A stretch of DNA of 64,000 nucleotides from Peptococcaceae bacterium UBA4068. Its GTDB lineage: Bacteria; Bacillota; Dehalobacteriia; UBA4068. Each line of letters begins with the position of its first letter. Position 1 is the stretch's first letter. The notes beneath the pieces are model-generated. The model had not been told where the DNA came from, made no database searches, and was given only the letters and a program-made list of their open reading frames with translations. The translations under genes were made by a program, and so were the position numbers. The stretch covers positions 17,589-81,588 of the forward strand of contig DFZA01000010.1 of the NCBI GenBank assembly GCA_002382665.1, read 5' to 3'. Below, piece after piece: positions 8,489 through 64,000 of the stretch.

Positions 8489-11400
8489 TTGCCGGTACAA
8501 TAATAATTTGCTGCGTATCAATCATATAAAGATATGTCTCTTTGACCGGCAACTGCCAGATATCGGCGATGGCGCGGCGGTAATAGGCTAATTGTCTATA
8601 ATATGTTTCCACTATCTGCTGTTCGCTTTTGCCGCGGCTGCCGGTTTTATAATCAACCAATACCAGCCCGTCGTCTTCCCTAAACACAGCGTCGATCATG
8701 CCTTGTACAATCAGCATATCATCTGCAGCAGCACCCACAAGCTGCTCTCTCCCGGGTAGCGCATAGGTGAAAGGCACTTCCCTGTAAATTTGCTCTGCAG
8801 CAATCATCCGTTTGCCCAACGGCGAGGCAAATAAAGCGAAAATAGTGGCTGGATCTGTGATTTGGGCCTCCTCCGGCTTCAATATGCCCTGTTGGGCAAA
8901 CGCTTTGATCTGATCTGTAACAGCAGTAACACTTTGACAATTGGTAATATTGATTTTCTCCAATAGTAAATGATAAACAGTACCGCGTTGGTTAGCGGCT
9001 AATGATAACGTATCGCTTTCTTCCAACGCTATTTCTTCAATCAGGCAGCTATCTTGCCGGTCATCGGCAATGATTGCTGTCTTATTTAATTCGCTGACTG
9101 TCCATTTAATCGGATAGTTGCATAAATCGGCATAAGGATAACGGTAATCCATAATTTGCTTGATGACATCCGCATGTTTTGTTGGAGATAATGCTGTCTG
9201 AGCCGCAACAGCTTGCAAACGATTATCCATAACATCGGAATCTTCACTTTGTTGATCACCTATAAGCTGCTGACCAAAACGAATCTGCCAGCAACTGTTA
9301 TCGGTAACTACAGATTGACAATGACAATCAAAACTTGCCCTGATCTCTGTGGCATCAGGATGATACAGCAGCACCATCAGCAGCCATTGCAAATAACTGT
9401 CTTTGCATTGTAAAACGTAACGGCTGAAAATTTGTTGATCTGCAGACACCAGCAAGTCTTTAAAGTATTCTTCTAATTTATCCGGCGGTTTGCTAATTGT
9501 GCCAATTAATATCAATTGGCGGGCAGCACGAGTTACCGCCACATATAAGGTACGCAAATCTTCAGCGATCGCTTCCTGATGCAATTTATCTACAATAGCG
9601 GCACGTGTCAGAGAATCAAATTTTATTCTCCGTTCAACGTCGATATTTTTAGAGCCGACACCAAAATCTTTATGCCATACTACATCGGCTTTAGCTTGAG
9701 GAAACTGCAATTTGCGGCCCAGCGACGCCACAAAAACCACAGAAAATTGCAGGCCTTTGCTTTTGTGGATGCTCATGACCCTAACCACATCGGCGCTTTC
9801 ACTAAGCAGCCGTTCACTCTCATTGGTAGAGTTTTTCTCTAAAGCGTCATCAAGCAGGTTAATAAAACGGGATAACCCGCTGAAACTGCTTCGCTCATAT
9901 TCGCAGGCTTGTTGATGCAGCGCCCGTAAGTTGGCTTGTCTCTCCTGCCCGCCCGGCAAGGCGCCACTTAATTGATAAAAACCACGAGTCTGACAAAGCT
10001 GCCAAACCAAATCGGCTAAATGACCTTTACCTGCTTGCCTACGCCAGACTGTCAACTGTTCTAAAAAGGCAGCGGCTTTAACTGATAAGGCGTCATCGCC
10101 AGCCGATGTCTGCAGCAGGCAATCATAAAAGCTTTGCTGCTTATCCATTAAACGTATCTGCACCAATTCCTCACTGGCAAAACCGGCTATTGGCGAATAA
10201 AGCACGGCAGTAAAAGGTATATCCTGCAGAGGATTATCAATGATTTTCAAACAGGACACGATTAAAGCCACTTCGGGCCGGTCAAGATAGGAAGGTGATT
10301 TATCGGCAACCGCAGGTATGCCCATTGCTAACAGCTTTTTAACTATTTCCTGATCGATATTACGCGGGGAACGCAGCAATACGGCAAAATCACGGTAATG
10401 GTAATTATATTTATCTATTAATTGACGAACGCGTTGACCAATTAATTCCGCTTCCCGGCGCGCGTCTTTGATACCGGCGCTTTCGGTCAGGTCGTCGTTT
10501 TCGTTTATCTCCGCTGTATCATCTTCATTGTTTCCGTTCTGGTCTTCCCGAGGACGGTTAAGCATCCATAATTCACAAGGATCCCCCTGGATATCACTAC
10601 CGGCAGAAAGCTCAGCTTGTTGGTTATAATCAATCTCCGCCGTTTCTTCACTAAACAGGCGGCGGAAAATGTAATTGACGCAGTTAATGATATTACAACT
10701 GCTGCGATAATTGAGGTTTAAATCGATGCGGATACCACCCTGATTGGCAGCATACTGTTGATACTTGCCTAAGAAAAGGCCGGGCTCCGCCATACGAAAG
10801 CGGTAGATGCTCTGTTTGACATCGCCGACCGCAAAACAATTATTATTGTTTTGCAACAGTTGTAATATTTGTTCCTGCACCGGATTGATGTCCTGATATT
10901 CGTCTATCAAGATTTCTGCAAATTGGCTTCTTAGGCCTTCCGCCACACCGTTTTCTTCGTCTTCTAAAACTTGCAGGCAAAAATGTTCCATATCACTAAA
11001 ATCTACCAAATTGCGGCGGCGTTTTTCCTGGGTTAAGGCCCTGTCATAAGCTATAGTCAGTTGACAAAGACCGGATATCAGCACAGCCGCTTCGCGCAGA
11101 TCGGCTAATTGTCTTTGGGGAGAACGACGGCAATACTTTTTTTGGAGTCCCGTAATAATCTCCTTGCCGGTTTTTCGTAAAGAAGCAAAGCGCTCTTTAT
11201 CATTTATCGGGGTTTGTTTATCCATAGGCGACATTCTGTCAAACTTGCAGTTAGCAAGATTAATCAACAGTTGCTGCCAACTGCCGATCTGTAACAAAGA
11301 AACAATCACTTCGTCTTCACCTAACAGTTGTTGCCTGCAGCGTTCAGCTATATTGGGGGTAGAAAGCGCCAACCTAAAATAACTATGCGCTTGTTCGATA

Positions 11401-12068
11401 TTTCTTTTTAATTCAGAAAATGCATAATCAGCAAACGGATAGTCTTCATAAGATTTGGCAGTTGTATAAATAGCTGCCGCGTTTTCTAACCACAGGCGCG
11501 GATGAGGTTGGCTACTGCTAAACGTATGCAGATCGATCACCAGTTTAGCCAGTTTATTTTGATCATTACCGCAGCCGTAGGTATCAAAAACCAAAGGCAG
11601 ACAACTATCCTCGCGGGCAAACTCCGTCTCGAAAAAACTATCAATCGCTTCATCGCGCAGCAGTAAATTTTCCGTTTCCGAGGGGATACGGAAGCCGTTA
11701 TCAAGACCCACCCGATAAAAATTCTGGCGTACGATATCGAGACAAAATGAATGAATGGTCGATATACGGGCTTGTGGCAACAATGCTAATTGGCGCAGCA
11801 GCCAACCATCTTCCCCGCCTTTTTCTTTAAGCCGCGCCGTCAACGACTCATCTATGCGTTGGCGCATTTCGTTGGCAGCGGCATTGGTAAAAGTCAATGC
11901 CAGTAAACAGTCAATATCTACCGGATCGTCATCGCGGCTGATTTTGCTGATGATCCGCTCGACCAACGCCGCCGTCTTACCGCTTCCTGCACCCGCGGCA
12001 ACCAATATGTTGCTACCACTGGTTTCGATGGCAGCTAGTTGCTGTTGGTTAAACGCTATCTTAGCCAT
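8481..12068 (-). CDS. addA: ATP-dependent helicase/nuclease subunit A
   Basis: Walker A AGAGSGKT, LTFTNAAA, IDEYQD, VGDVKQSIYRFR, MSIHKSKGL, YVAVTRA, and C-terminal nuclease QGMID..LVDYKT. Confidence 0.95.
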   Translation of the reverse strand: MAKIAFNQQQLAAIETSGSNILVAAGAGSGKTAALVERIISKISRDDDPVDIDCLLALTFTNAAANEMRQRIDESLTARLKEKGGEDGWLLRQLALLPQARISTIHSFCLDIVRQNFYRVGLDNGFRIPSETENLLLRDEAIDSFFETEFAREDSCLPLVFDTYGCGNDQNKLAKLVIDLHTFSSSQPHPRLWLENAAAIYTTAKSYEDYPFADYAFSELKRNIEQAHSYFRLALSTPNIAERCRQQLLGEDEVIVSLLQIGSWQQLLINLANCKFDRMSPMDKQTPINDKERFASLRKTGKEIITGLQKKYCRRSPQRQLADLREAAVLISGLCQLTIAYDRALTQEKRRRNLVDFSDMEHFCLQVLEDEENGVAEGLRSQFAEILIDEYQDINPVQEQILQLLQNNNNCFAVGDVKQSIYRFRMAEPGLFLGKYQQYAANQGGIRIDLNLNYRSSCNIINCVNYIFRRLFSEETAEIDYNQQAELSAGSDIQGDPCELWMLNRPREDQNGNNEDDTAEINENDDLTESAGIKDARREAELIGQRVRQLIDKYNYHYRDFAVLLRSPRNIDQEIVKKLLAMGIPAVADKSPSYLDRPEVALIVSCLKIIDNPLQDIPFTAVLYSPIAGFASEELVQIRLMDKQQSFYDCLLQTSAGDDALSVKAAAFLEQLTVWRRQAGKGHLADLVWQLCQTRGFYQLSGALPGGQERQANLRALHQQACEYERSSFSGLSRFINLLDDALEKNSTNESERLLSESADVVRVMSIHKSKGLQFSVVFVASLGRKLQFPQAKADVVWHKDFGVGSKNIDVERRIKFDSLTRAAIVDKLHQEAIAEDLRTLYVAVTRAARQLILIGTISKPPDKLEEYFKDLLVSADQQIFSRYVLQCKDSYLQWLLMVLLYHPDATEIRASFDCHCQSVVTDNSCWQIRFGQQLIGDQQSEDSDVMDNRLQAVAAQTALSPTKHADVIKQIMDYRYPYADLCNYPIKWTVSELNKTAIIADDRQDSCLIEEIALEESDTLSLAANQRGTVYHLLLEKINITNCQSVTAVTDQIKAFAQQGILKPEEAQITDPATIFALFASPLGKRMIAAEQIYREVPFTYALPGREQLVGAAADDMLIVQGMIDAVFREDDGLVLVDYKTGSRGKSEQQIVETYYRQLAYYRRAIADIWQLPVKETYLYMIDTQQIIIVPAII

Positions 12069-48499: not shown

Positions 48500-48662
48500 A
48501 GAAAAGTGAATACTTTGCGATATGGTATAAGGGAAGAGGGGTGAAAATCCCCCACAACAGCCATTACTGTAATTGCCGACGCGAGAACAACACGCCATTG
48601 TCTTGATTTATGATGAGAAGGCGTTCTCAAGGTTGAAGCATGAGTCAGGAGACCTGCCCTAT
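48500..48662 (+). ncRNA. Cobalamin (B12) riboswitch
   Basis: In the expected order: AAGGGAA, GGTGAAAATCC, CAGCC, CTGTAA, GCCATTG, GAGAAGGC, and the B12 box GAGTCAGGAGACCTGCC. Confidence 0.92.
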
Positions 48663-48715
48663 TGCTTGCACGAACATTATTCCTGGCGTGGGGGATAGCG
48701 GCTTTTTTTATTGTT

Positions 48716-48745
48716 AAAACAAGCTCCCCAATGGGAGCTTGTTTT
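48716..48745 (+). terminator. Leader terminator hairpin (riboswitch expression platform)
   Basis: AAAACAAGCTCCC-CAAT-GGGAGCTTGTTTT just upstream of the GGAGGAG RBS. A weaker hairpin plus T7 run lies at about 48678-48709. Confidence 0.75.
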
Positions 48746-48760
48746 ATTGGAGGAGTACCG

Positions 48761-49429
48761 ATGCAACGAAAAATTTTAATATCAATAATTATTTTAGTGG
48801 TATTTTCAGCATTAATATTATGCTGCTGTCATAACGGTTCCGGGAAAGCCGCCAGTACCAAAGAAAGCACCGCAACTGTTTCGCAGCAGGAACAAACTGC
48901 CAATACTGATCAAAAAACAATAGATAATCAACAACAAAATCAGAATGCGGAACAGCAACCAATAAAGCAGACGACTACAAGTAATAACAAAACGCAGCAG
49001 CAGACCAATCAAACAACAACGACAACAAAGACCTCTAGTGCTAAAACAGACAAATTAACCTGTACGCTTAGTGTTTCCTGTGCCAGTATTTTTGACCATC
49101 TCGACAGCTTTAACAGCGACAAATTAGAGCTAGTGCCGGAAGATGGCATAGTATTCTATAAAAAAGATTGCGAATTTACCAAAGGCGAGAGCGTATTTGA
49201 CGTTTTAAAACGAGAACTGTTAGCTGCCGAGATTCACTTTGAATTTTCCACCACGCCGGTCTACAATACCAATTACGTTGAAGCTATTGATAATATTTAC
49301 GAATTTGACGGCGGCGACTTTACCGGCTGGAAATACAAAGTTAACGGTACTTTTCCCGGTTGTGGCTGTTCGTTATATAAAGTCAGCGACGGCGACGTTA
49401 TCGAATGGGTTTATACTTTTAATTATTGA
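48761..49429 (+). CDS. DUF4430 (transcobalamin-like C-terminal domain) lipoprotein, putative corrinoid-binding
   Basis: Lipoprotein-type signal ending LILCCC; Q/T/N linker; GESVFDVL...YVEAIDNIYEFDGG..TGWKYKVNG..P..G...Y....GDVIEWVYT. Start placed at ATG 48761 after GGAGGAG. Confidence 0.85.
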   Translation: MQRKILISIIILVVFSALILCCCHNGSGKAASTKESTATVSQQEQTANTDQKTIDNQQQNQNAEQQPIKQTTTSNNKTQQQTNQTTTTTKTSSAKTDKLTCTLSVSCASIFDHLDSFNSDKLELVPEDGIVFYKKDCEFTKGESVFDVLKRELLAAEIHFEFSTTPVYNTNYVEAIDNIYEFDGGDFTGWKYKVNGTFPGCGCSLYKVSDGDVIEWVYTFNY

Positions 49430-49455: not shown

Positions 49456-51897
49456 ATGTTCAACAAAAAAAGTAACTGTAAAAATGTCTTTGTTTTATTG
49501 CTGCTGGCACTTCTATTGTTGCTGGCGGCAACCACAACGGTATTGGCGGCAACCGTCAGTCCGCAGGTAGCAATGGATGACACCGTAAATAATTACTACA
49601 TTACAGCCAGAGACCGGACTATGGGAGATTGGGAGGAACTGCTTGCGCTCTATACCGCCCAGACAATCGGCGGCAGTGATATTGACTTAGCTGCTTTTGA
49701 TCAGCAGATCACTTATTCTTCAGACAGCACTGCAGTAATAGACTCTTTAATCAACGGTAATATGGCCGATGCTTCAACTTATGCAGCTGATTTGGTAGAC
49801 GGCACTACCTTGATCAGCGCCGGCTATGCCTACACTGACGCATACTCAATGATCGCAATAGAGGCTTATAACCGTGCTGCTGCCGAAACATCTGATTATC
49901 AGCCGCTACCATATGATAAAGATACAGCTATATCAGCTTTGATTGATACAATGGAAAGTGACGGCGGATTCGGCTACGGAGTCTACAGCAGTGGTAGCAG
50001 TGATGTTGACAATACTGCAATGGCTTTGATCGCGCTTTCGCTTTACCAGGACAGCGACGCCCCTGATTGTTCACCCAACGTGTCCCAGGCAATCACCTCC
50101 GGACTGGCTTATCTTCAGACTGTACAAGCGGCAAACGGCGGTTTCAACTATTCATATACTTATGATGACCAACTGTTTTCGAGCTACAGCGGCAACTCTA
50201 CAGCAGTGGTAATCTGGGCAATCATTGCCAATGGCGGCAATCCCACAGCTGCGGAGTGGACGACCGAAGGCGGTGATACCCCTGTTTCCGCTCTAATCAC
50301 CAATTCTTATATCAGCGGCGGCGGTTTCGGCGATTACGGTGCAGCAGACTATTTTTGTTCCAAACAAGCTCTAATTGCCGTAACCGAGGTAACTGCCTTA
50401 AACAAGCTCAGCAGCCCCTCTCCTGAACAAATAAAAGACTGCTCAATATTTAATACCCTATCCCTTAACCAAGACATGCTCCACCCCGTGCATTTGCTGG
50501 TCTATGACGGCAGCGGCATCAGTCAAAAATCATTATCCGTTCCTCATGGCAATTCGCTTAGCAATGCGTTAAGCGCCGCCGGTATTGATCCCAGCGGATT
50601 GAAATGTTACTTCAACGGCAGTACAATTACTGATTTGAGTACTACAATAACCGGCGAAAGTTATCTTACCCTGGCTCCGGAGGGTATTACCCATATCGGC
50701 CAATTTTATCAAGGCAGCACAAAAACTACATCCGCCACTATTGAAGTCGGACATACAGCCAATTTCATTCTTAAAAGTATAGCGGTTGATGACGCCACCC
50801 AGACAGAAACTACCAGCGCCAACATCGCTCTCAGTAATGATATCACTACCGACGCCAACGGCCATTTTTCTTTCAGCAGCAACAGTAGCGGCAGCTATAA
50901 TATCACCTCCGCCACAACAGGTTATATCACTCCAACATTAACCATTACTGTAATCCCCCAAAACAACGACAGCAGCCAATATATTACACTCAATGTCAGT
51001 GATAGCGGTGGACATATCAATAATTATAATAATGACAGTATTATCTATAACTCCCAACAGACGCCATTGTCGCTATTACTGCAATATAAAGAAAATGTAG
51101 TACTTCAAGGTAGCAGCTATGTTGTGTCAATTGACGGCTGGAGCGCCGGTGACGGCGGCGCCAACAGCGGCTGGCTCTATAAAGTCAAACGCGGCGGTAA
51201 AATGCTTTACCCAACGGTACCGGCCGCTTCTTACGCACTGCAATCCGGTGATATTGTATATTGGTATTACACATATAATTATACTAACGATCAAGGCTCT
51301 TCAAACTGGAGCGGTACGACAACAACCACCGACACCGTTGACGGCAAACAATTTAATGATGTTAACTCAGAATATTGGGCCGCCGCATATATTAACGATT
51401 TGAGCAGCCGTAATATTTTCGGCGGATATCCGGACGGCAGTTTCCGTCCCGAACAAAATATCAGCCGTAGCGAATTTATCGCCCTGTTGGCGCGCATAAG
51501 CGGAGAGACACTGCCGGAATATAACAATACATTCGCTGATGTATCCTCAAATAGTTGGTATGCTGCTGATGTTGCCTGGGCCGTTGGCACAGGAATCACA
51601 AACGGCATCGACAGCAAACACTTTTCTCCCGATACCCCGATCAGCCGTCAGGATATGGCTGTGATGCTTGCCCGTTTTATCGCTCATATGCAATACCAAA
51701 TCACATCGCAAAACGATACCAATACTTTAAGCGATAGTGATTTAATCAACGATTATGCCAGATCTGCAGTCTTACAAATGCAGCAAGCCGGTATCATCAA
51801 CGGTTATACAGACAATAGTTTTCGGCCTTGCGATACCGCTTCCAGAGCGGAAGTTGCAAAAATATTAAGCGTATTACTTACTAAAATCTCAAAATAA
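49456..51897 (+). CDS. S-layer-anchored protein: alpha/alpha-barrel (prenyltransferase-like repeats) + DUF4430 + 3 SLH
   Basis: Signal peptide; DGGFG..SDVDNTAMALIAL, LAYL..VQAANGGF, NSTAVVIWAI repeats; YVVSIDG...SGWLYKV...GDIVYWYYT; three SLH repeats (FNDV..YWA...GYPDGSFRP...ISRSEF, and two more). Confidence 0.88.
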   Translation: MFNKKSNCKNVFVLLLLALLLLLAATTTVLAATVSPQVAMDDTVNNYYITARDRTMGDWEELLALYTAQTIGGSDIDLAAFDQQITYSSDSTAVIDSLINGNMADASTYAADLVDGTTLISAGYAYTDAYSMIAIEAYNRAAAETSDYQPLPYDKDTAISALIDTMESDGGFGYGVYSSGSSDVDNTAMALIALSLYQDSDAPDCSPNVSQAITSGLAYLQTVQAANGGFNYSYTYDDQLFSSYSGNSTAVVIWAIIANGGNPTAAEWTTEGGDTPVSALITNSYISGGGFGDYGAADYFCSKQALIAVTEVTALNKLSSPSPEQIKDCSIFNTLSLNQDMLHPVHLLVYDGSGISQKSLSVPHGNSLSNALSAAGIDPSGLKCYFNGSTITDLSTTITGESYLTLAPEGITHIGQFYQGSTKTTSATIEVGHTANFILKSIAVDDATQTETTSANIALSNDITTDANGHFSFSSNSSGSYNITSATTGYITPTLTITVIPQNNDSSQYITLNVSDSGGHINNYNNDSIIYNSQQTPLSLLLQYKENVVLQGSSYVVSIDGWSAGDGGANSGWLYKVKRGGKMLYPTVPAASYALQSGDIVYWYYTYNYTNDQGSSNWSGTTTTTDTVDGKQFNDVNSEYWAAAYINDLSSRNIFGGYPDGSFRPEQNISRSEFIALLARISGETLPEYNNTFADVSSNSWYAADVAWAVGTGITNGIDSKHFSPDTPISRQDMAVMLARFIAHMQYQITSQNDTNTLSDSDLINDYARSAVLQMQQAGIINGYTDNSFRPCDTASRAEVAKILSVLLTKISK

Positions 51898-58567: not shown

Positions 58568-61084
58568 TTATTTACTCTTGCGCTTAGCTTTCGAGTTCAA
58601 TAACAGGGCGGACGCGATAAGCACAATGCCTAAGATACCAATAATAGTAGCGGTCGCCATTCCACCTGTATCAGGTAGTACATCGATATCGCCTAATACT
58701 CCAGATTCTTCTTCGGGTTGGACTACAGGTTGATCTCCGTTATCTACGTCAATATCGCCTAATACTCCGGATTCCTCGAATATATTCTCAATAACAACGC
58801 CTACCCGGGATGTACCGGTTATTTTTCCAGTAGAGCTACTATCCGGTCCCGTCCAGCCGGCATCTTTCTGATCATCTGTAAGTGTTTCGGTTACGGTATA
58901 TTCTGCGCCTAAAGGAATTTTTGTGAAGGTAGCTGATTCTCCGTTAGCAAGCGAAAGGGTATATTTGCCATCACTCAATGTTCCTCCGTTGCATTTGATT
59001 CCGCTCAAATCGCTTCCTGTAAACTGAACCGTAATATCAAATTTCTCTATTGTGGACGCACCGTCGCCAGTGACATTTTTCGTAACAATTAATGAACCGT
59101 ATTCATCCGGATCAGACGGCGTATCTTTGTCATATTTATTCTTTACTATGATGTCGTTCTGCTGAGAATCACTGATTGTACCGGATGCGTCGCTGCTTGC
59201 TCTGAACCATCCCTTGCTTATTTGCGTACTGGTCAGTTTTTCTATTACGGTATAGGTTGTTCCCAGCGGGATATTTGTAAATGTCGCAAACTCGGCATCA
59301 CTCAAGGACAGAGTGTATGTACCGTTCGAGTCTGTATCCCCGCCGCTGAAGTCGATATCTTCAAGACTACCACTACCGTTTTCTCCGATATTAAACTGAA
59401 CTGTGATAGCGAAATCTGCATCGGGTGCACCTGTTGTCAATACGTCCTTGGTTACCTTCAATGAACCGTATTCAGGATCTCCAGGTGGCGTTCCCGGATC
59501 ATATGTATTCTCAACTGTTTTATCAACCTCTGTTGTGCTGTTTATTGTACCGTTTAAATCATTCGCCTCATTCACCGGGCCTTCCCAACCTGCTGAGGTT
59601 TGCGCAGGAGTTAGGTTCTCCGTTATGGTATAGCCTATTCCCATTGGGATATTTGTAAATTCCGCGAACTCATCATCACACAATGACAGAATATATGTGC
59701 CGTTCGGGCTTGTAGTCCCGCCGCTGAATTCTATATCATTAAGATTATCGGTTGTTCCTGAAAACTGTACTGTGATAGCAAATTCCTCTGTCGAGGATGC
59801 ATTGTCACCAGTTACATTTTTCGTCACCTTCAATGAACCGTATTCAGGATCTCCCGGCGGCGTTCCCGGATCATATGTATTCTCAACTGTTTCTTCAACC
59901 TCTGCTGTGCTGTTTATTGTACCGTTTAAATCATTCGCCTCATTCACCGGGCCTTCCCAACCTGCTGAGGTTTGCGCAGGAGTTAGGTTCTCCGTTATGG
60001 TATAGCCTATTCCCATTGGGATATTTGTAAATTCCGCGAACTCATCATCACACAATGACAGAATATATGTGCCGTTCGGGCTTGTAGTCCCGCCGCTGAA
60101 TTCTATATCATTAAGATTATCGGTTGTTCCTGAAAACTGTACTGTGATAGCAAATTCCTCTGTCGAGGATGCATTGTCACCAGTTACATTTTTCGTCACC
60201 TTCAATGAACCGTATTCAGGATCTCCCGGCGGCGTTCCCGGATCATATGTATTCTCAACTGTTTCTTCAACATCTGTTGTTTCGTCGTTTATTTCGCCTT
60301 CCAAATCATCAGCCGGGCCTTCCCAGCCTGCGTCTTCCTGATCACCCGTAAGTGTTTCGGTTATGGTATAGGACGTTTCCAGCGGGATATTTGTAAAGGT
60401 AGCGAATTCTCCGTCAGCAAGCGAGAGATCATATGTGTCTGTGTCATCATTCCATGTCCCACCACTGCATTGGATTCCGCTTAAATTGTCCCCTGAAAAT
60501 GCTACCGTGATAGCAAATTCCTCTGTCGTGGATGCATCGTCGCCAGTTACATCCTTCGTTACTTTCAATGAACCGTATTCAGGATCTACCGGCGGTTCGT
60601 AGGAAATCAGATCAATATGGCTGACACCTTCATCATGACAACAAGTAGCAGGATCAGGACTATTAATTTTGCTTACTGTGACCGTTTTGTTTGCAGTATT
60701 TATTTCTATTTGATAATTATACTGGTTACCTGCTATAAAATCATATAGTTTAAAACTTGTCGATGTGGTTACATAACTATTTGCTGGATCAACACTCGGG
60801 TCCAAATAGTCTTTATCCTGATTATAATCTTTTCCTATTACACTTTTAATTGTGTCATTATCATCGGTGATAGTATCGTCAACCCAGATAAAAGCAGAAG
60901 TAGACTGCTTTATCACAATAATATTCGAGTCGCCGTAGTCATAAGTCCCCAGTGCATTAAAGATCTGTCCATCTAATTTATAGCTTCCAGTCGTGTCGGC
61001 CGCCAATGCCGCTGCACAGACACATAAAACGATTACTAAAATAAAAATAATACTGAATACTTTTCCTTTAACTTTTTTAATCAT
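58568..61084 (-). CDS. Sortase-anchored surface protein with five CnaB/Ig-like repeats and an LPDTG sorting signal
   Basis: Signal peptide; five units, each running GSL.VTK.V ... Y T(I/V).E ... V.N; then LPDTG (58664-58678), a TM segment and the basic tail KAKRKSK. Confidence 0.9.
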   Translation of the reverse strand: MIKKVKGKVFSIIFILVIVLCVCAAALAADTTGSYKLDGQIFNALGTYDYGDSNIIVIKQSTSAFIWVDDTITDDNDTIKSVIGKDYNQDKDYLDPSVDPANSYVTTSTSFKLYDFIAGNQYNYQIEINTANKTVTVSKINSPDPATCCHDEGVSHIDLISYEPPVDPEYGSLKVTKDVTGDDASTTEEFAITVAFSGDNLSGIQCSGGTWNDDTDTYDLSLADGEFATFTNIPLETSYTITETLTGDQEDAGWEGPADDLEGEINDETTDVEETVENTYDPGTPPGDPEYGSLKVTKNVTGDNASSTEEFAITVQFSGTTDNLNDIEFSGGTTSPNGTYILSLCDDEFAEFTNIPMGIGYTITENLTPAQTSAGWEGPVNEANDLNGTINSTAEVEETVENTYDPGTPPGDPEYGSLKVTKNVTGDNASSTEEFAITVQFSGTTDNLNDIEFSGGTTSPNGTYILSLCDDEFAEFTNIPMGIGYTITENLTPAQTSAGWEGPVNEANDLNGTINSTTEVDKTVENTYDPGTPPGDPEYGSLKVTKDVLTTGAPDADFAITVQFNIGENGSGSLEDIDFSGGDTDSNGTYTLSLSDAEFATFTNIPLGTTYTVIEKLTSTQISKGWFRASSDASGTISDSQQNDIIVKNKYDKDTPSDPDEYGSLIVTKNVTGDGASTIEKFDITVQFTGSDLSGIKCNGGTLSDGKYTLSLANGESATFTKIPLGAEYTVTETLTDDQKDAGWTGPDSSSTGKITGTSRVGVVIENIFEESGVLGDIDVDNGDQPVVQPEEESGVLGDIDVLPDTGGMATATIIGILGIVLIASALLLNSKAKRKSK
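59454..60271. repeat. Near-identical 372-bp tandem repeat inside the adhesin gene (about 2.2 copies)
   Basis: ACCTTCAATGAACCGTATTCAGGATCTCC recurs at 59454, 59826 and 60198. I count 5 substitutions between the two full copies. Confidence 0.95.
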
Positions 61085-61186: not shown

Positions 61187-61666
61187 TTACTTAGTGTCCG
61201 CTGCTAATTTATTGTTCATCACTCCGTCTCCGTCCAGAGCGCTGTCAATCATCTTCAGAAGCTCAAGTGCACTGCGAAAATTCAGCGTACAGTTCTTTTC
61301 GGCCCATGTTACCTTTCCCTGCCAGGTAGCATTTTGCCTGTATTGTATATGCACTACAAACGTCCCTTTATCACCTTGCTGAGAAGTAATATCATTTTCA
61401 TTCATAAAATTCGCAATCACCTCTTTCACCGGAGACCTCAGTTGTTTTTTGGCACTGAAAGTTCTTGATTTTGTTGATGACTGAGGGTATCCAATACGGT
61501 CAAATACCTCTTCCATTTCCAAAAATATTTTTTGTGGTCCCACAAACGGAACCGCAGCAGTACTCAAGCAATGGAATATTCTTCCCGAAAACCCTGATTG
61601 ATCTACCTGATCAACACAAATCGTAAATACGCTCGAAGCGCGAGTAGTGGATTTTGAATTAACCAT
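61187..61666 (-). CDS. Conserved clostridial hypothetical protein with two similar halves
   Basis: SVFTICVDQ...FSGRIFH...PF.G...IFLEMEEVF versus GTFVVHIQYRQNATWQGKVTW...NFRSALELLKMIDSAL. Confidence 0.8.
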   Translation of the reverse strand: MVNSKSTTRASSVFTICVDQVDQSGFSGRIFHCLSTAAVPFVGPQKIFLEMEEVFDRIGYPQSSTKSRTFSAKKQLRSPVKEVIANFMNENDITSQQGDKGTFVVHIQYRQNATWQGKVTWAEKNCTLNFRSALELLKMIDSALDGDGVMNNKLAADTK

Positions 61667-61911
61667 CCTTTGGTCTCTCCCCTTTTGATGAATTCATAAT
61701 AACATCGCTCATCTACGATTTGGCTACAAAACCCCAAAATATGTAAAAATATTACAATTTTTGTTCCTAAGGTCTAAGGTTAAACATTGCCCAGATAAAT
61801 AGATGGATAAATTCAATATTATTGTTTTATTCAACAAAAAAGATCCTAATTGTAATCAATTGGATCAAAAAAACAGACAACATGTGTAATTATCTGTTGA
61901 TAATTATAAAA

Positions 61912-61933
61912 GGCGTATCAATATTGATACGCC
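61912..61933 (-). terminator. Terminator after the BTAD regulator gene
   Basis: Perfect palindrome GGCGTATCAAT|ATTGATACGCC followed by TTTT on the minus strand. Confidence 0.8.
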
Positions 61934-61963: not shown

Positions 61964-63226
61964 TTATCCCCATAAAGAACGATCATTATTAAACTTTATT
62001 GCATCGCCATTAAAATTAAATTCAGCCGCAGGCAAAACACTGCACTTCAAATGAATTCCTCTTCCATTATATGACTTGCGATAATTAGCGGTTATACGAT
62101 CGGATATTAAGTTGCAATTTTCCATATTTGTTCCGATCAAAAGCACAAGAAACTGAGTAACATTGTATCTGGTATACATATCTCCACGCCGTAAAGAATT
62201 TTTTATAGAATCTGACAGGCATTGTGCTGCATATGAAAGCCGGTTATCAGACTTGGGCAAGTCGCCGCTTTTATTAGCCAGGTTGCAGAGCATTAAATAA
62301 ACTGACTGACCGCTGCGCTCCATCATCCTTGAAACAAAACGATAGCTGTCAATAAAGCTCATCGATGTACAATAGTAGGCGCCTCTTAGCTCCGATTCCT
62401 CCTTGATTTCATCTCTAATCTCTTTGATCGGCAATCTTTCATCCTTGAGTTTATCTGATATCTCGCCGAAAAGCGCTTTTAGCTCCGCCGATGGAGTAGT
62501 GTTCCAATCATCAAGAAGCATCTCTGTTGCAAAATTGTAGGCAATAAATGCATCTTTAATACGGCCTTCAGCAATAAGACATCTTATGTATATTATATGG
62601 AGCTCTTCCTCAAATGGGTAAATCCTCATGCCTTTTGAACAAAGCTTCAGCATTGTCTGATAATCTTCATTTTCCCTTAACAGTTCCCAAGCTCTCTTAA
62701 AACATTGCAGATAGAGATTAGAATAGTAAGCGGAAACAACTGTCGCCCAATCATTTCCGGCAAGATTTGGCAGAAAATCACCATCATAAAGATCAATTGC
62801 GCAGGTATAAAGCTCAATCTTTCTTTGATAAGTCTGCCCAGGTTGCTTGGCTTGATTAACCGTTGTTTCGAATTGGTGGGAATCGATTTCACATGGTATA
62901 GTTGCATTCCATCCATACATACCGTCGCTGCAGTATATATATTCCTGTTTTGGCAGTCCCAAATCCAGCAGAACCTTTCTCAAACGTGTCACTAACACCT
63001 GAAGCGCCTTAACGGGATTATCGATCTCTTCATCACCGTATAACACGTCGATCAGCTTTTCCTTGGTAATGCTTTTGCCGCTATTCTGAATCAGGTACTG
63101 GAGCAAAAAGGACGTCCTGCTACCATTGTATTTTTTAAACACAATGGATTTCCCACCGGCAGTAATAGAAAAACTGCCGAACATTTTTATCTTTAAAGAC
63201 TTTTCATCCATCCGAACTTTTCCCAA
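61964..63226 (-). CDS. SARP-like regulator: winged-HTH + BTAD + degenerate GGDEF domain
   Basis: IKMFGSFSI, KEKLIDVLYGD...LQVLVTRLRK (wHTH); AIDLYDGDFLP...PFEEELH..YIRCL..GR...A..AY (BTAD); C-terminal LRRGDMYTRYNVTQFLVLL. Confidence 0.88.
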   Translation of the reverse strand: MGKVRMDEKSLKIKMFGSFSITAGGKSIVFKKYNGSRTSFLLQYLIQNSGKSITKEKLIDVLYGDEEIDNPVKALQVLVTRLRKVLLDLGLPKQEYIYCSDGMYGWNATIPCEIDSHQFETTVNQAKQPGQTYQRKIELYTCAIDLYDGDFLPNLAGNDWATVVSAYYSNLYLQCFKRAWELLRENEDYQTMLKLCSKGMRIYPFEEELHIIYIRCLIAEGRIKDAFIAYNFATEMLLDDWNTTPSAELKALFGEISDKLKDERLPIKEIRDEIKEESELRGAYYCTSMSFIDSYRFVSRMMERSGQSVYLMLCNLANKSGDLPKSDNRLSYAAQCLSDSIKNSLRRGDMYTRYNVTQFLVLLIGTNMENCNLISDRITANYRKSYNGRGIHLKCSVLPAAEFNFNGDAIKFNNDRSLWG

Positions 63227-63453
63227 CCCAAATTATTCTTTAATAAATTAAAGTATCATTCATTAATAACCTTTAATTTATATTAAGTAATAATATCATA
63301 ATTATCTAAAATTGTCATTATTTTTTTTTACAATCCCAATTATAATGATCTCTATACTGAATCCGCAGAAGACCACTACCGTGCTGTCGTGATACAAATT
63401 ATATTGAAAATTGTTTTATATATGGTATGATTTTGAAAGGAGGGCCGGAAAAC

Positions 63454-64000
63454 ATGAATAAAAGACGAATTGCAACAATACTTCTGGTTTCGGCCGGAAC
63501 TATTTTGATAATAACGGCGGCTATTCTTGAATATCAAGACTTCCCATGGGATGCTTTATTTAGCAGAAGCAACCAAAATTGGAGCGACGTTGCTGACCCC
63601 AAACCCATTAATCTTGAAGATGGAGAAACTATCGTTAGTGATGATAATCAAGAACCTGCCGAGGACACATATGAAGGTACTGTGCTCCCAGGACAAATAG
63701 ATGAGAATTCTACCTCTACCGCACCGTCTGTTTTTGAACAGCTGGGGATACTTAAAATACCGGTTATAAACGTTTCGGCTTACATATTTGAGGGTACGCA
63801 AAAACAGCTAAAATACGGCGTTGGACATGTTATTGGTACTGATGCGATTGGTGAGAAAGGCAATTGTGTAATTGCAGGACACAACTATCATCCCTTCCGT
63901 CATCTTAATCTTCTTAAGAAGGGAGACAATGTTATAATTAAAACTCCCCAAAACACTTATACTTATACAGTATATGATAGCTTCACCGTACAACCCCAAG
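63454..64000 (+). CDS. Sortase (class D-like), runs off the right edge
   Basis: Not in the ORF track. ATG 63454 after AGGAGG; N-terminal TM, acidic linker, LGILKIPVINV...EGT...LKYGVGH...GNCVIAGHNYHPFRHLNLLKKGD. The catalytic TLxTC would lie beyond the window. Confidence 0.9.
   Translation, partial: MNKRRIATILLVSAGTILIITAAILEYQDFPWDALFSRSNQNWSDVADPKPINLEDGETIVSDDNQEPAEDTYEGTVLPGQIDENSTSTAPSVFEQLGILKIPVINVSAYIFEGTQKQLKYGVGHVIGTDAIGEKGNCVIAGHNYHPFRHLNLLKKGDNVIIKTPQNTYTYTVYDSFTVQPQ

Follow-up and report, generated by a model that had tools for sequence, protein, structure and literature searches.

The regulator gene analysed here probably encodes an undescribed c-di-GMP-controlled switch for neighbouring cell-surface adhesin genes. 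It lies within a 64-kb window, by which we mean the whole stretch of DNA analysed. The reading that we favour, with moderate confidence, is that the protein is a one-component activator of the SARP type, in which a degenerate GGDEF domain retaining only its I-site couples adhesin expression to the level of c-di-GMP.

The regulator is composed of a winged helix-turn-helix, a BTAD domain and a C-terminal domain of GGDEF fold, in that order from the N-terminus (Table 1). Its true start is ATG 63211 rather than TTG 63226, because the homologs, whose N-termini were compared, start with MDEK, MDEQ, or MNEQ. The winged helix-turn-helix domain spans about residues 9–100. The best PDB sequence matches to residues 34–247 are the SARP structures of AfsR (8hvr and 8k60, E 6e-7), and the NCBIfam AfsR model NF053617 matches as well (1.8e-8). 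Together with Pfam, these matches reveal the arrangement that defines a SARP, an OmpR-type winged helix followed by BTAD, and the fusion to a wHTH-BTAD module reported in the preliminary description is upheld by the two Pfam matches given in Table 1. A PucR/CdaR-type regulator with GGDEF_2 is ruled out, as neither PF17853 nor a PucR HTH is matched in Pfam even at E ≤ 10.

Table 1 Features of the regulator gene and its surroundings, in window coordinates.
Feature	Position	Strand	Remarks
Cell-wall-anchored adhesin, 838 aa	58568..61084	−	Five DUF7601/DUF5979 repeats, LPDTG sorting signal
Partner gene, 159-aa protein	61187..61666	−	Two beta-beta-beta-alpha repeats
Extended −10, TGTTATTAT	61696..61704	−	6 nt downstream of the repeats; no −35 hexamer; read from sequence
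Tandem direct repeats TGTAGCC-AAAT-CGTAGAT	61711..61728	−	11 nt start to start; putative SARP site
AT-rich hairpin followed by T-run, GATCCAATTGATTACAATTAGGATCTTTTTT	61836..61866	−	Conserved in comparison with L010/L001
Intrinsic terminator 3′ of the regulator gene	61912..61933	−	9-bp stem with 5 GC pairs, T-run
Regulator CDS	61964..63211	−	415 aa; ATG 63211, stop 61964–61966
C-terminal tail, low confidence	61967..62029	−	Ends ...KFNNDRSLWG; pLDDT <50 for last 13 residues
Truncated, catalytically dead GGDEF-fold domain	62030..62383	−	Residues ~277–394; profile against PDB, AF2, Foldseek
R372, equivalent of PleD R390, third primary I-site residue	62096..62098	−	Ungapped HMM alignment
NVTQF replacing GG[DE]EF (degenerate A-site)	62150..62164	−	Alignment
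RRGD, RxxD I-site motif (R341, D344)	62180..62191	−	Aligned to TM1788 RRSD and PleD R359/D362
N310 at the metal-binding Asp position	62282..62284	−	Aligned to D of VLFVDLAGFK in TM1788
R295 and R299 at end of helix alpha1	62315..62329	−	Near-invariant; position from AF2 secondary structure
BTAD domain	62444..62872	−	Residues 114–256; PF03704 4.7e-16, full profile length
OmpR/SARP-type winged helix-turn-helix	62945..63094	−	Pfam Trans_reg_C 3.4e-8; residues 40–89 matched
Likely regulator promoter	63290..63318	−	ATGACA-17-TG-TATTAT; consensus scan; block kept in L010/L001
Sortase gene, divergent from regulator	63427..64000	+	Pfam Sortase 7.7e-19; continues beyond window end

The C-terminal domain is, by profile and predicted fold, a member of the GGDEF superfamily. 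In a single-sequence Pfam scan, GGDEF (PF00990) scores 15.3 bits, below the gathering cut-off of 23.8, and the match covers profile positions 62–112 of 161 alone. A profile of the domain (alignment A2) searched against PDB yields 14 matches below 1e-3, every one a GGDEF domain, with TM1788 (4urg) the best (E 7.6e-10), indicating that the ungapped alignment to RxxD-x5-GGDEF noticed previously is a homology match and not a chance motif. Within this comparison with PDB cyclases, HMMER places slRrgDvytrYsksqf on RVRRSDVVARYGGDEF, and the residue altered in the 'I site mutant' entry 4urq is exactly the Arg aligned with R341. The AF2 model of the domain (pLDDT 87) has the secondary structure alpha1-beta1-alpha2-beta2-beta3-alpha3-beta4, and the best 50 Foldseek matches to it in PDB are all GGDEF (probability 1.0, TM(query) 0.46–0.62), in agreement with the profile search. 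The model stops after beta4 and continues into a low-confidence tail without the alpha4/beta5 part; relative to a canonical GGDEF domain, the C-terminal third is absent. The GGDEF assignment of the preliminary description thus stands in fold and homology, but not as a full-length domain. We know of no structurally characterised I-site receptor as short as this one.

With ATG 63211 as the start, R341–F354 reads RRGDMYTRYNVTQF and lies at exactly 62191–62150 (−), with the RxxD motif five residues ahead of the degenerate GGDEF position. In ungapped alignment, R341, D344, and R372 correspond to R359, D362, and R390 of PleD, the alignment for R372 running over profile positions 75–114 on PleD 354–393. 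The I-site of PleD consists of these three residues and R313 of an adjacent domain (PMC7288161). Judged by how well it is conserved and where the AF2 secondary structure places it, R299 may be the counterpart of R313, the trans-acting secondary I-site Arg.

The A-site residues, in contrast to those of the I-site, are missing throughout the family. GG[DE]EF occurs in 0 of 146 representatives, its position following the pattern S/N/G-x-S/N/G-Q-F/Y, which bears out the earlier remark that the catalytic motif has become NVTQF. The metal-binding Asp position (PleD D327) is T, S, or N across the family. Judged from alignment and model, with GG[DE]EF, the metal-binding Asp, and the alpha4/beta5 part all lost, the domain cannot make c-di-GMP.

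Conservation sets the I-site residues apart from the rest of the domain. The family comprises about 2,212 clusters at 50% identity (E ≤ 1e-10), nearly all of ~400 residues and of the same architecture, from gut and anaerobic-digester Clostridia (Lachnospiraceae, Oscillospiraceae, Christensenellaceae, and Peptococcaceae-like MAGs); a literature search found no paper on a SARP/BTAD-GGDEF fusion. The RxxD motif singled out in the preliminary description is kept in 57/57, 55/55, and 145–146/146 members of three samples, and the third I-site residue, R372, is kept too (141/144 representatives in the 50% identity set of 146). The only residues of the C-terminal domain that are 100% invariant in 57 homologs are F286, R295, R299, R341, D344, and R372; they are likewise conserved in the 146 representatives at 50% identity and kept in 54 species-representative genomes at 25–83% identity. 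From this pattern in the sequences, we infer that c-di-GMP binds at the retained I-site residues. Some of the retention could be historical or structural, because RxxD and an R390-type Arg belong to the general GGDEF consensus.

The gene immediately 3′ of the regulator gene encodes a small partner protein. It has no Pfam match, and a fold search against PDB gives no match (best E 0.36; pLDDT of the AF2 model, 72). Its family, ~155 residues in size, comprises more than 335 clusters and 486 loci, related loci having been collected with the small-protein alignment (A4). The regulator lies ≤600 nt upstream of the small gene in 44 of 86 cases and is divergent or 1–2 kb off in others, so that a rule by which the small protein always follows the regulator is rejected. 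Roughly one in four small-protein genes has housekeeping genes as neighbours and no regulator nearby. In P0046, regulator and small protein are fused (E 1e-15).

These associations bear on the rival explanation that survives best, in which the degenerate GGDEF domain is a nucleotide-independent interaction or dimerisation module, the Arg and Asp residues forming salt bridges to the partner, BTAD, or a second protomer, and the signal arriving via the partner. Adjacency of the partner gene in most cassettes, the fusion in P0046, and the truncation of the domain are all consistent with such a module, as is a recurrent Phe...Trp motif at the C-terminal end (W within the last 10 residues in 40/55 regulators, compared with a 1.2% W background), which suggests docking. 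However, the invariant set is exactly the I-site triad plus the alpha1 Arg, regulators of the P0043 and P0059 groups have this set with no adjoining small-protein gene seen (neighbours judged without a homology test), and c-di-GMP riboswitches are present in the same cassettes. We consider this nucleotide-independent role unlikely.

A pair of heptamers beside the extended −10 in the partner-gene promoter is the predicted, putative SARP binding site. The pattern [CT]GTAG-N6-[CT]GTAG occurs a single time in the 64-kb window. Compared with L010, the heptamers are identical and the spacers have diverged; the repeats of the window draw their support from this one related species and from the similar arrangement in other cassettes. 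The two heptamers of the window agree at 4/7 positions. Analogous co-varying repeats in 40 cassettes agree perfectly (7/7) in 10/40, compared with 1.5% of shuffles, and at ≥6/7 positions in 33/40, compared with 25% of shuffles, and a TGnTAnnAT element lies downstream of the repeats in most cassettes too. Nearer the regulator gene, the conserved hairpin may be a second terminator or an operator.

If the repeats were a matter of chance, the regulator would act elsewhere or on its own gene only and would not control the adjacent adhesin cassette. The low agreement between the heptamers of the window and the small-protein genes beside housekeeping genes point in this direction, but the recurrence of co-varying repeats upstream of an extended −10 at frequencies above those of shuffles, the conservation of the heptamers while the spacers diverge, and the conserved gene order make it quite improbable.

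That order, with the regulator followed by the small protein and a giant surface protein and with a sortase nearby, is observed in 6 of 8 distinct cassettes (those found by way of the regulator); the remaining two adjoin T2SSE/T2SSF or secretin clusters. Regulators from other lineages adjoin type IV pilus or secretin genes in place of those for sortase-anchored adhesins. Read from the sequences, this gene context speaks for a function in surface structures. The one-component SARP-like activator with a degenerate GGDEF domain put forward at the outset is retained, and is extended by a cassette with a conserved small partner and by loci beyond sortase adhesins.

In five distinct homologous cassettes, c-di-GMP-I riboswitches occupy the interval between the small gene and the adhesin gene, and in the closest relatives, L001 and L010, three tandem copies adjoin the sortase. 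Riboswitch and regulator control appear, from these arrangements, to be combined in some cassettes. The cassette of the window has no c-di-GMP riboswitch in Rfam searches at gathering and E ≤ 1, and a regex scan for GG[DE]EF, EAL, and HD-GYP over all 64 kb finds no cyclase or phosphodiesterase. The scan returns two EAL-like strings, as well as a GGEEF string in a 304-codon open frame at about 24109 (−) that we judge a chance match of the regex. Near the cassette in L004/L005, a 473-aa HD protein matches a generic HD model only.

We know of RxxD combined with an R390-type Arg in c-di-GMP sites only. Binding of another nucleotide (c-di-AMP, which Clostridia make, 3′3′-cGAMP, pGpG, (p)ppGpp, or GTP) to the I-site-like pocket is improbable as well: degenerate GGDEF domains can bind others, and the GGDEF domain of YybT/GdpP has ATPase activity (PMC7288161), but here the domain has lost the A-site residues that would bind GTP/ATP, along with the phosphate-binding part at the C-terminus, the two motifs are, to our knowledge, those of a c-di-GMP site alone, and the riboswitches of the cassettes belong to the c-di-GMP-I class.

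In the favoured reading of a c-di-GMP-responsive SARP activator, the SARP module (OmpR-type winged helix and BTAD) would bind the tandem repeats TGTAGCC-N4-CGTAGAT, adjoining an extended −10 that would drive the 159-aa partner gene and probably also the LPDTG adhesin gene behind it. The degenerate GGDEF domain would be a palm core with a complete allosteric I-site, formed by R341, D344, R372, and probably R299 in trans. An intercalated c-di-GMP dimer at this site would cross-link two such domains, as in product-inhibited PleD and WspR, and cross-linking would set the oligomeric state of the two DNA-binding modules or the way they are arranged on the direct repeats. The small protein may bind the regulator and adjust its activity or exert feedback on it. 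The direction of control, the cross-linking by c-di-GMP, and the part played by the small protein are our inference. Tentatively, and with somewhat less than even confidence, the proposal can be widened to the SARP-GGDEF proteins as a large family (at least 2,200 clusters at 50% identity) of c-di-GMP-gated activators from Clostridia and their relatives that would switch on adhesin, sortase-pilus, and type IV pilus loci, in which a c-di-GMP dimer would dimerise the SARP on its repeats, the partner would have a new fold, and some loci would carry a riboswitch in series, making a protein-plus-RNA feed-forward gate.

PelD of P. aeruginosa is a c-di-GMP receptor that uses the I-site of a degenerate GGDEF domain. 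The same holds for PopA of Caulobacter (PMC12564702), YdaK of B. subtilis (PMC5422440, PMC7064775), and PssE of Listeria (PMC4125290). Like the regulator, all four have a dead GGDEF domain that keeps the R390-type Arg and, five residues ahead of the degenerate GG[DE]EF, RxxD, and their output is on surface polymers or adhesion. However, they are membrane, scaffold, or response-regulator adaptor proteins that act via protein contacts and have no DNA-binding domain, whereas the regulator has one, and their GGDEF domains are full length, whereas that of the regulator ends after beta4 and its binding is predicted only. The product-inhibited cyclases PleD, WspR, and TM1788 share the fold and the I-site residues. 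In product inhibition of diguanylate cyclases, a (c-di-GMP)2 dimer cross-links two domains (PMC7288161). Cross-linking of these active enzymes stops catalysis, whereas in the regulator its effect would be on the geometry of a transcription factor.

With the SARPs AfsR, ActII-ORF4, and DnrI of Streptomyces and EmbR of Mycobacterium, the regulator shares the OmpR-type winged helix and BTAD, and the putative repeats of the partner-gene promoter would be the counterpart of their tandem heptamer-like direct repeats, about one helical turn apart in place of a −35. The small gene afsS, directly downstream of AfsR, is its direct target; by this likeness, the small gene here is a likely direct target of the regulator. 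These SARPs are found in actinomycete hosts with antibiotic clusters as targets, whereas the regulator is found in Clostridia with adhesin and pilus genes, and the C-terminal sensor is NB-ARC/TPR in AfsR and FHA in EmbR but a degenerate GGDEF domain here. We know of no SARP that senses a nucleotide second messenger.

As proposed, the regulator would resemble BldD, FleQ, VpsT, MrkH, Clp, and LtmA in the direct control of adhesion or biofilm gene transcription by c-di-GMP. Dimerisation of BldD is reportedly mediated by a c-di-GMP oligomer. None of the six, as far as we know, has a GGDEF-derived I-site sensor, is of the SARP type, or comes from Clostridia, and we are aware of no c-di-GMP-sensing protein transcription factor characterised in Clostridia. 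Control of clostridial adhesins and pili by c-di-GMP is known mainly via riboswitches. The target class is the same, and c-di-GMP-I aptamers are present in homologous cassettes, but the riboswitch senses c-di-GMP as RNA and affects elongation or translation, whereas the regulator would sense it as a protein and affect initiation.

The hypothesis is directly testable, because the candidate operator, the partner protein, and the four residues to mutate have been specified. If binding is true, the regulators would form a new and widespread class of c-di-GMP effectors in Clostridia of the gut and of anaerobic digesters, would explain the coupling of c-di-GMP to surface attachment in many commensals, and would indicate that a transcription factor can reuse as its sensor the site through which a cyclase is inhibited by its product.

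The preliminary description placed an ORF at 61964-63226(-). The gene itself stands, but its start moves from 63226 to the ATG at 63211, because the homologs begin with MDEK, MDEQ or MNEQ; the resulting SARP-type regulator is 415 aa long. In this numbering, the motif peptide R341-F354 (RRGDMYTRYNVTQF) occupies 62191-62150, exactly where it was first located. Pfam matches both Trans_reg_C and BTAD in the single sequence, confirming the fusion to a wHTH-BTAD module (see table). NCBIfam returns an AfsR-type SARP model together with weak cyclase models, and among PDB sequences the N-terminal half best matches the AfsR SARP module (8hvr, E 6e-7).

On the single regulator sequence, the Pfam GGDEF match is sub-threshold (residues 337-384, 15.3 bits vs a cut-off of 23.8). 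We collected ~60 homolog clusters of ~400 aa, aligned 25 of them over their last 154 residues and ran the resulting profile (A2) against all PDB sequences. All 14 sequences with E <1e-3 are GGDEF domains, the top match being Thermotoga TM1788 (4urg, E 7.6e-10). In the HMMER alignment, the family consensus slRrgDvytrYsksqf pairs with RVRRSDVVARYGGDEF, and 4urq, a PDB entry labelled 'I site mutant', departs from wild type precisely at the Arg paired with R341. The AlphaFold2 model of A2 is confident (pLDDT 87, pTM 0.79) and has the topology alpha1-beta1-alpha2-beta2-beta3-alpha3-beta4, followed by a tail whose last 13 residues are of low confidence. The best 50 Foldseek matches in the PDB are all GGDEF domains (E 1e-6 to 1e-3, probability 1.0). 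Because profile matches, model and structural matches all point to GGDEF, the fold proposed at the outset is upheld. Compared with canonical GGDEF, the domain (GGDEF*) stops early: it lacks the final ~30 profile positions, which cover alpha4 and the subsequent strands. The C-terminal tail of the regulator (61967-62029, minus strand), of low confidence in the model, ends in KFNNDRSLWG and carries a recurrent Phe-x(4-7)-Trp motif; Trp occurs within the last 10 residues in 40/55 family members vs a Trp background of 1.2%. As a peptide, this motif may serve in docking or in autoinhibition.

The catalytic site is lost and the residues of the allosteric c-di-GMP site (I-site) are retained, in agreement with the initial reading. 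The metal-binding Asp of TM1788 (VLFVDLAGFK) is N310 in the regulator and T, S or N across the family. GGDEF has become NVTQF, with the family pattern S/N/G-x-S/N/G-Q-F/Y, and GG[DE]EF occurs in 0/146 representatives (50% identity). PleD aligns with the A2 HMM without gaps over profile positions 75-114 (residues 354-393 of the 454-residue chain), which makes R341, D344 and R372 the equivalents of R359, D362 and R390. These three PleD residues, together with R313 of the adjacent GGDEF domain, form the I-site (PMC7288161). Only F286, R295, R299, R341, D344 and R372 of the domain are 100% invariant in 57 homologs, and the identical six are invariant in the query and 54 regulators from species-representative genomes (25-83% identity, median 33%). 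Among representatives at 50% identity, R341 is found in 145/146, D344 in 146/146, R372 in 141/144, R295 in 144/145 and R299 in 144/146. R299 sits where helix alpha1 ends, 11 residues ahead of the D327-equivalent; given a three-residue difference in loop length, we infer that it corresponds to PleD R313, which acts in trans. All but one of the six invariant residues carry a charge, and these five would be surface-exposed. That GGDEF* is an interaction domain without nucleotide is rather unlikely: the invariant residues overlap a known ligand site and the catalytic residues have drifted, a pattern that would be expected of a receptor. The regulator is predicted, with some confidence, to bind c-di-GMP.

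The A2 profile retrieves 2,212 clusters (50% identity, E<=1e-10) among 1.84 billion representatives. The best 150 of these, shorter entries aside, are ~400 aa long with the domain at ~residues 262-400; many of the shorter entries are probably fragments. With this number of clusters and a common architecture, the SARP-GGDEF* fusion is therefore old and successful, and no local accident.

The gene directly after the regulator, encoding a small protein, is preceded by TGTAGCC-AAAT-CGTAGAT-GAGCGA-TGTTATTAT (61728-61696, minus strand). L010, which with L001 is the closest related locus (regulator 84%, small protein 88% identical), shares both heptamers and the extended -10 and differs in the two spacers (AAAT to AAGA, GAGC to ATAA). 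[CT]GTAG-N6-[CT]GTAG has a single occurrence in the 64-kb window. The layout recurs in 40 non-identical cassettes, as two direct repeats 11-12 nt apart, 6-9 nt, then TGnTAnnAT, with a repeat sequence that varies by cassette (GTAACG, CGTGAT, GCGAAA, CTTTAC, TGAGnCA and others). Repeats are perfect (7/7) in 10/40 cassettes vs 1.5% of shuffles, and >=6/7 in 33/40 vs 25%. SARP/OmpR proteins are known to recognise promoters in this way, by tandem repeats ahead of the -10. The recurrent layout indicates that each regulator activates, through these putative sites, the promoter that comes directly after its own gene. We regard this predicted control of the neighbouring promoter as likely, and a target elsewhere as distinctly improbable. 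Between the GC-rich terminator of the regulator and the small-gene promoter, an AT-rich hairpin with a T-run behind it (61836-61866, minus strand) is kept in L010 and L001; it could serve as an additional terminator, as an attenuator or as the operator of a dimeric protein.

Domains and cassette features of the regulator locus, and tandem aptamers at its closest relatives
Feature	Position	Strand	Remark
Trans_reg_C	residues 40-89		Pfam 3.4e-8
BTAD	residues 114-256		Pfam 4.7e-16
Regulator terminator	61933-61912	minus	
Small gene	61666-61187	minus	159 aa; after regulator
Surface-protein gene	61084-58568	minus	838 aa, five DUF7601/DUF5979 repeats, LPDTG anchor; after small gene
Sortase gene	from 63427		divergent from regulator
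Triple aptamer, L001	6349-6736	minus	152-nt spacing
Triple aptamer, L010	2745-3133	minus	152-nt spacing

Eight distinct cassettes were reached from the regulator side. The order seen in the window is kept in 6/8, with surface proteins of SpaA/Cna_B/VWA, Flg_new or DUF7601 types; one of the remaining two adjoins T2SSE/T2SSF genes and the other a secretin cluster. The theme common to the cassettes is surface appendages, a classical c-di-GMP output. At two loci (L091 2402-7297, L092 1778-6595), divergent members of the regulator family lie upstream of transglutaminase-like, T2SSF and T2SSE genes or a secretin cluster, not sortase adhesins; they comprise a 398-aa group, one sequence of which is labelled Peptococcaceae, and a protein of Halanaerobium, and no small-protein gene was seen beside them. 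At L004 (P0053 lineage), a 473-aa HD-domain protein is encoded two genes downstream of the cassette (9493-10914). The adhesin gene in the window contains near-identical internal repeats of ~370 nt each (59697-60341), visible as repeated antisense ORFs and hairpin matches at 59784-59797 and 60156-60169; their number may therefore vary. A cobalamin riboswitch (48506-48675(+), 76 bits), upstream of ORFs 48662-49429 and 49456-51897, is unrelated to the regulator.

The small protein has no Pfam match. Its family comprises >335 clusters, with 486 loci in species-representative genomes (Lachnospiraceae, Oscillospiraceae, Christensenella and others). The model (pLDDT 72) consists of two beta-beta-beta-alpha repeats and matches no PDB fold; the invariant signature is RQNATWQG...FRSALELLK. 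P0046, a regulator of the family, carries the small protein as a C-terminal fusion (BLASTP E 1e-15), and this speaks for a physical association of the two. The small gene is ruled out as an obligate neighbour, a regulator lying <=600 nt upstream of just 44/86 small genes and elsewhere being divergent or 1-2 kb off; about a quarter of small genes are beside housekeeping genes. Some small genes also separate consecutive giant adhesin genes, and some stand by themselves beside housekeeping genes.

In the mechanism we propose, c-di-GMP, probably as an intercalated dimer, would bind R341, D344 and R372 of one GGDEF* and R299 of a second. This bridge would copy the cross-link that inactivates PleD and WspR, and would lock two SARP modules in phase with the tandem repeats, so that the small gene and the adhesin gene are switched on. 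The product of the small gene would next bind the regulator, providing feedback. Regulation could be of opposite sign.

Aptamers of the c-di-GMP-I class reach the Rfam gathering threshold in L006, L002 and L013, where they separate the small gene from the adhesin gene, and in L001 and L010, where three tandem copies lie between the genes for the sortase and for a CAP-domain (PF00188) protein. A covariance model made from these aptamers and run over all loci adds L011, L012 and L030, bringing to five the distinct species in which the small gene is directly followed by an aptamer; a tandem of three is present in L030, too (11285-11787). Rfam finds no c-di-GMP riboswitch in the window's own cassette, and the triple-aptamer position, projected on this genome, falls just past base 64000. 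The loci with aptamers are therefore part of c-di-GMP regulons in related organisms. This is circumstantial backing for c-di-GMP as the ligand of the regulator, for which another nucleotide is highly improbable, and suggests that expression is gated in two layers, by a protein that senses the signal at initiation and an RNA that does so at elongation.

PelD is a degenerate GGDEF I-site receptor. So are PopA (PMC12564702) and, in Firmicutes, YdaK and PssE (PMC5422440, PMC7064775, PMC4125290). None of the four is known to bind DNA, whereas the regulator has a DNA-binding module. The sensor parts of known SARPs are NB-ARC/TPR or FHA, in contrast to GGDEF* here, and a full-text literature search returned nothing relevant linking SARP or BTAD to GGDEF or c-di-GMP. 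Degenerate GGDEF I-site receptors are known; what is new, and bioinformatically well supported, is a predicted I-site receptor with a transcription-factor output.
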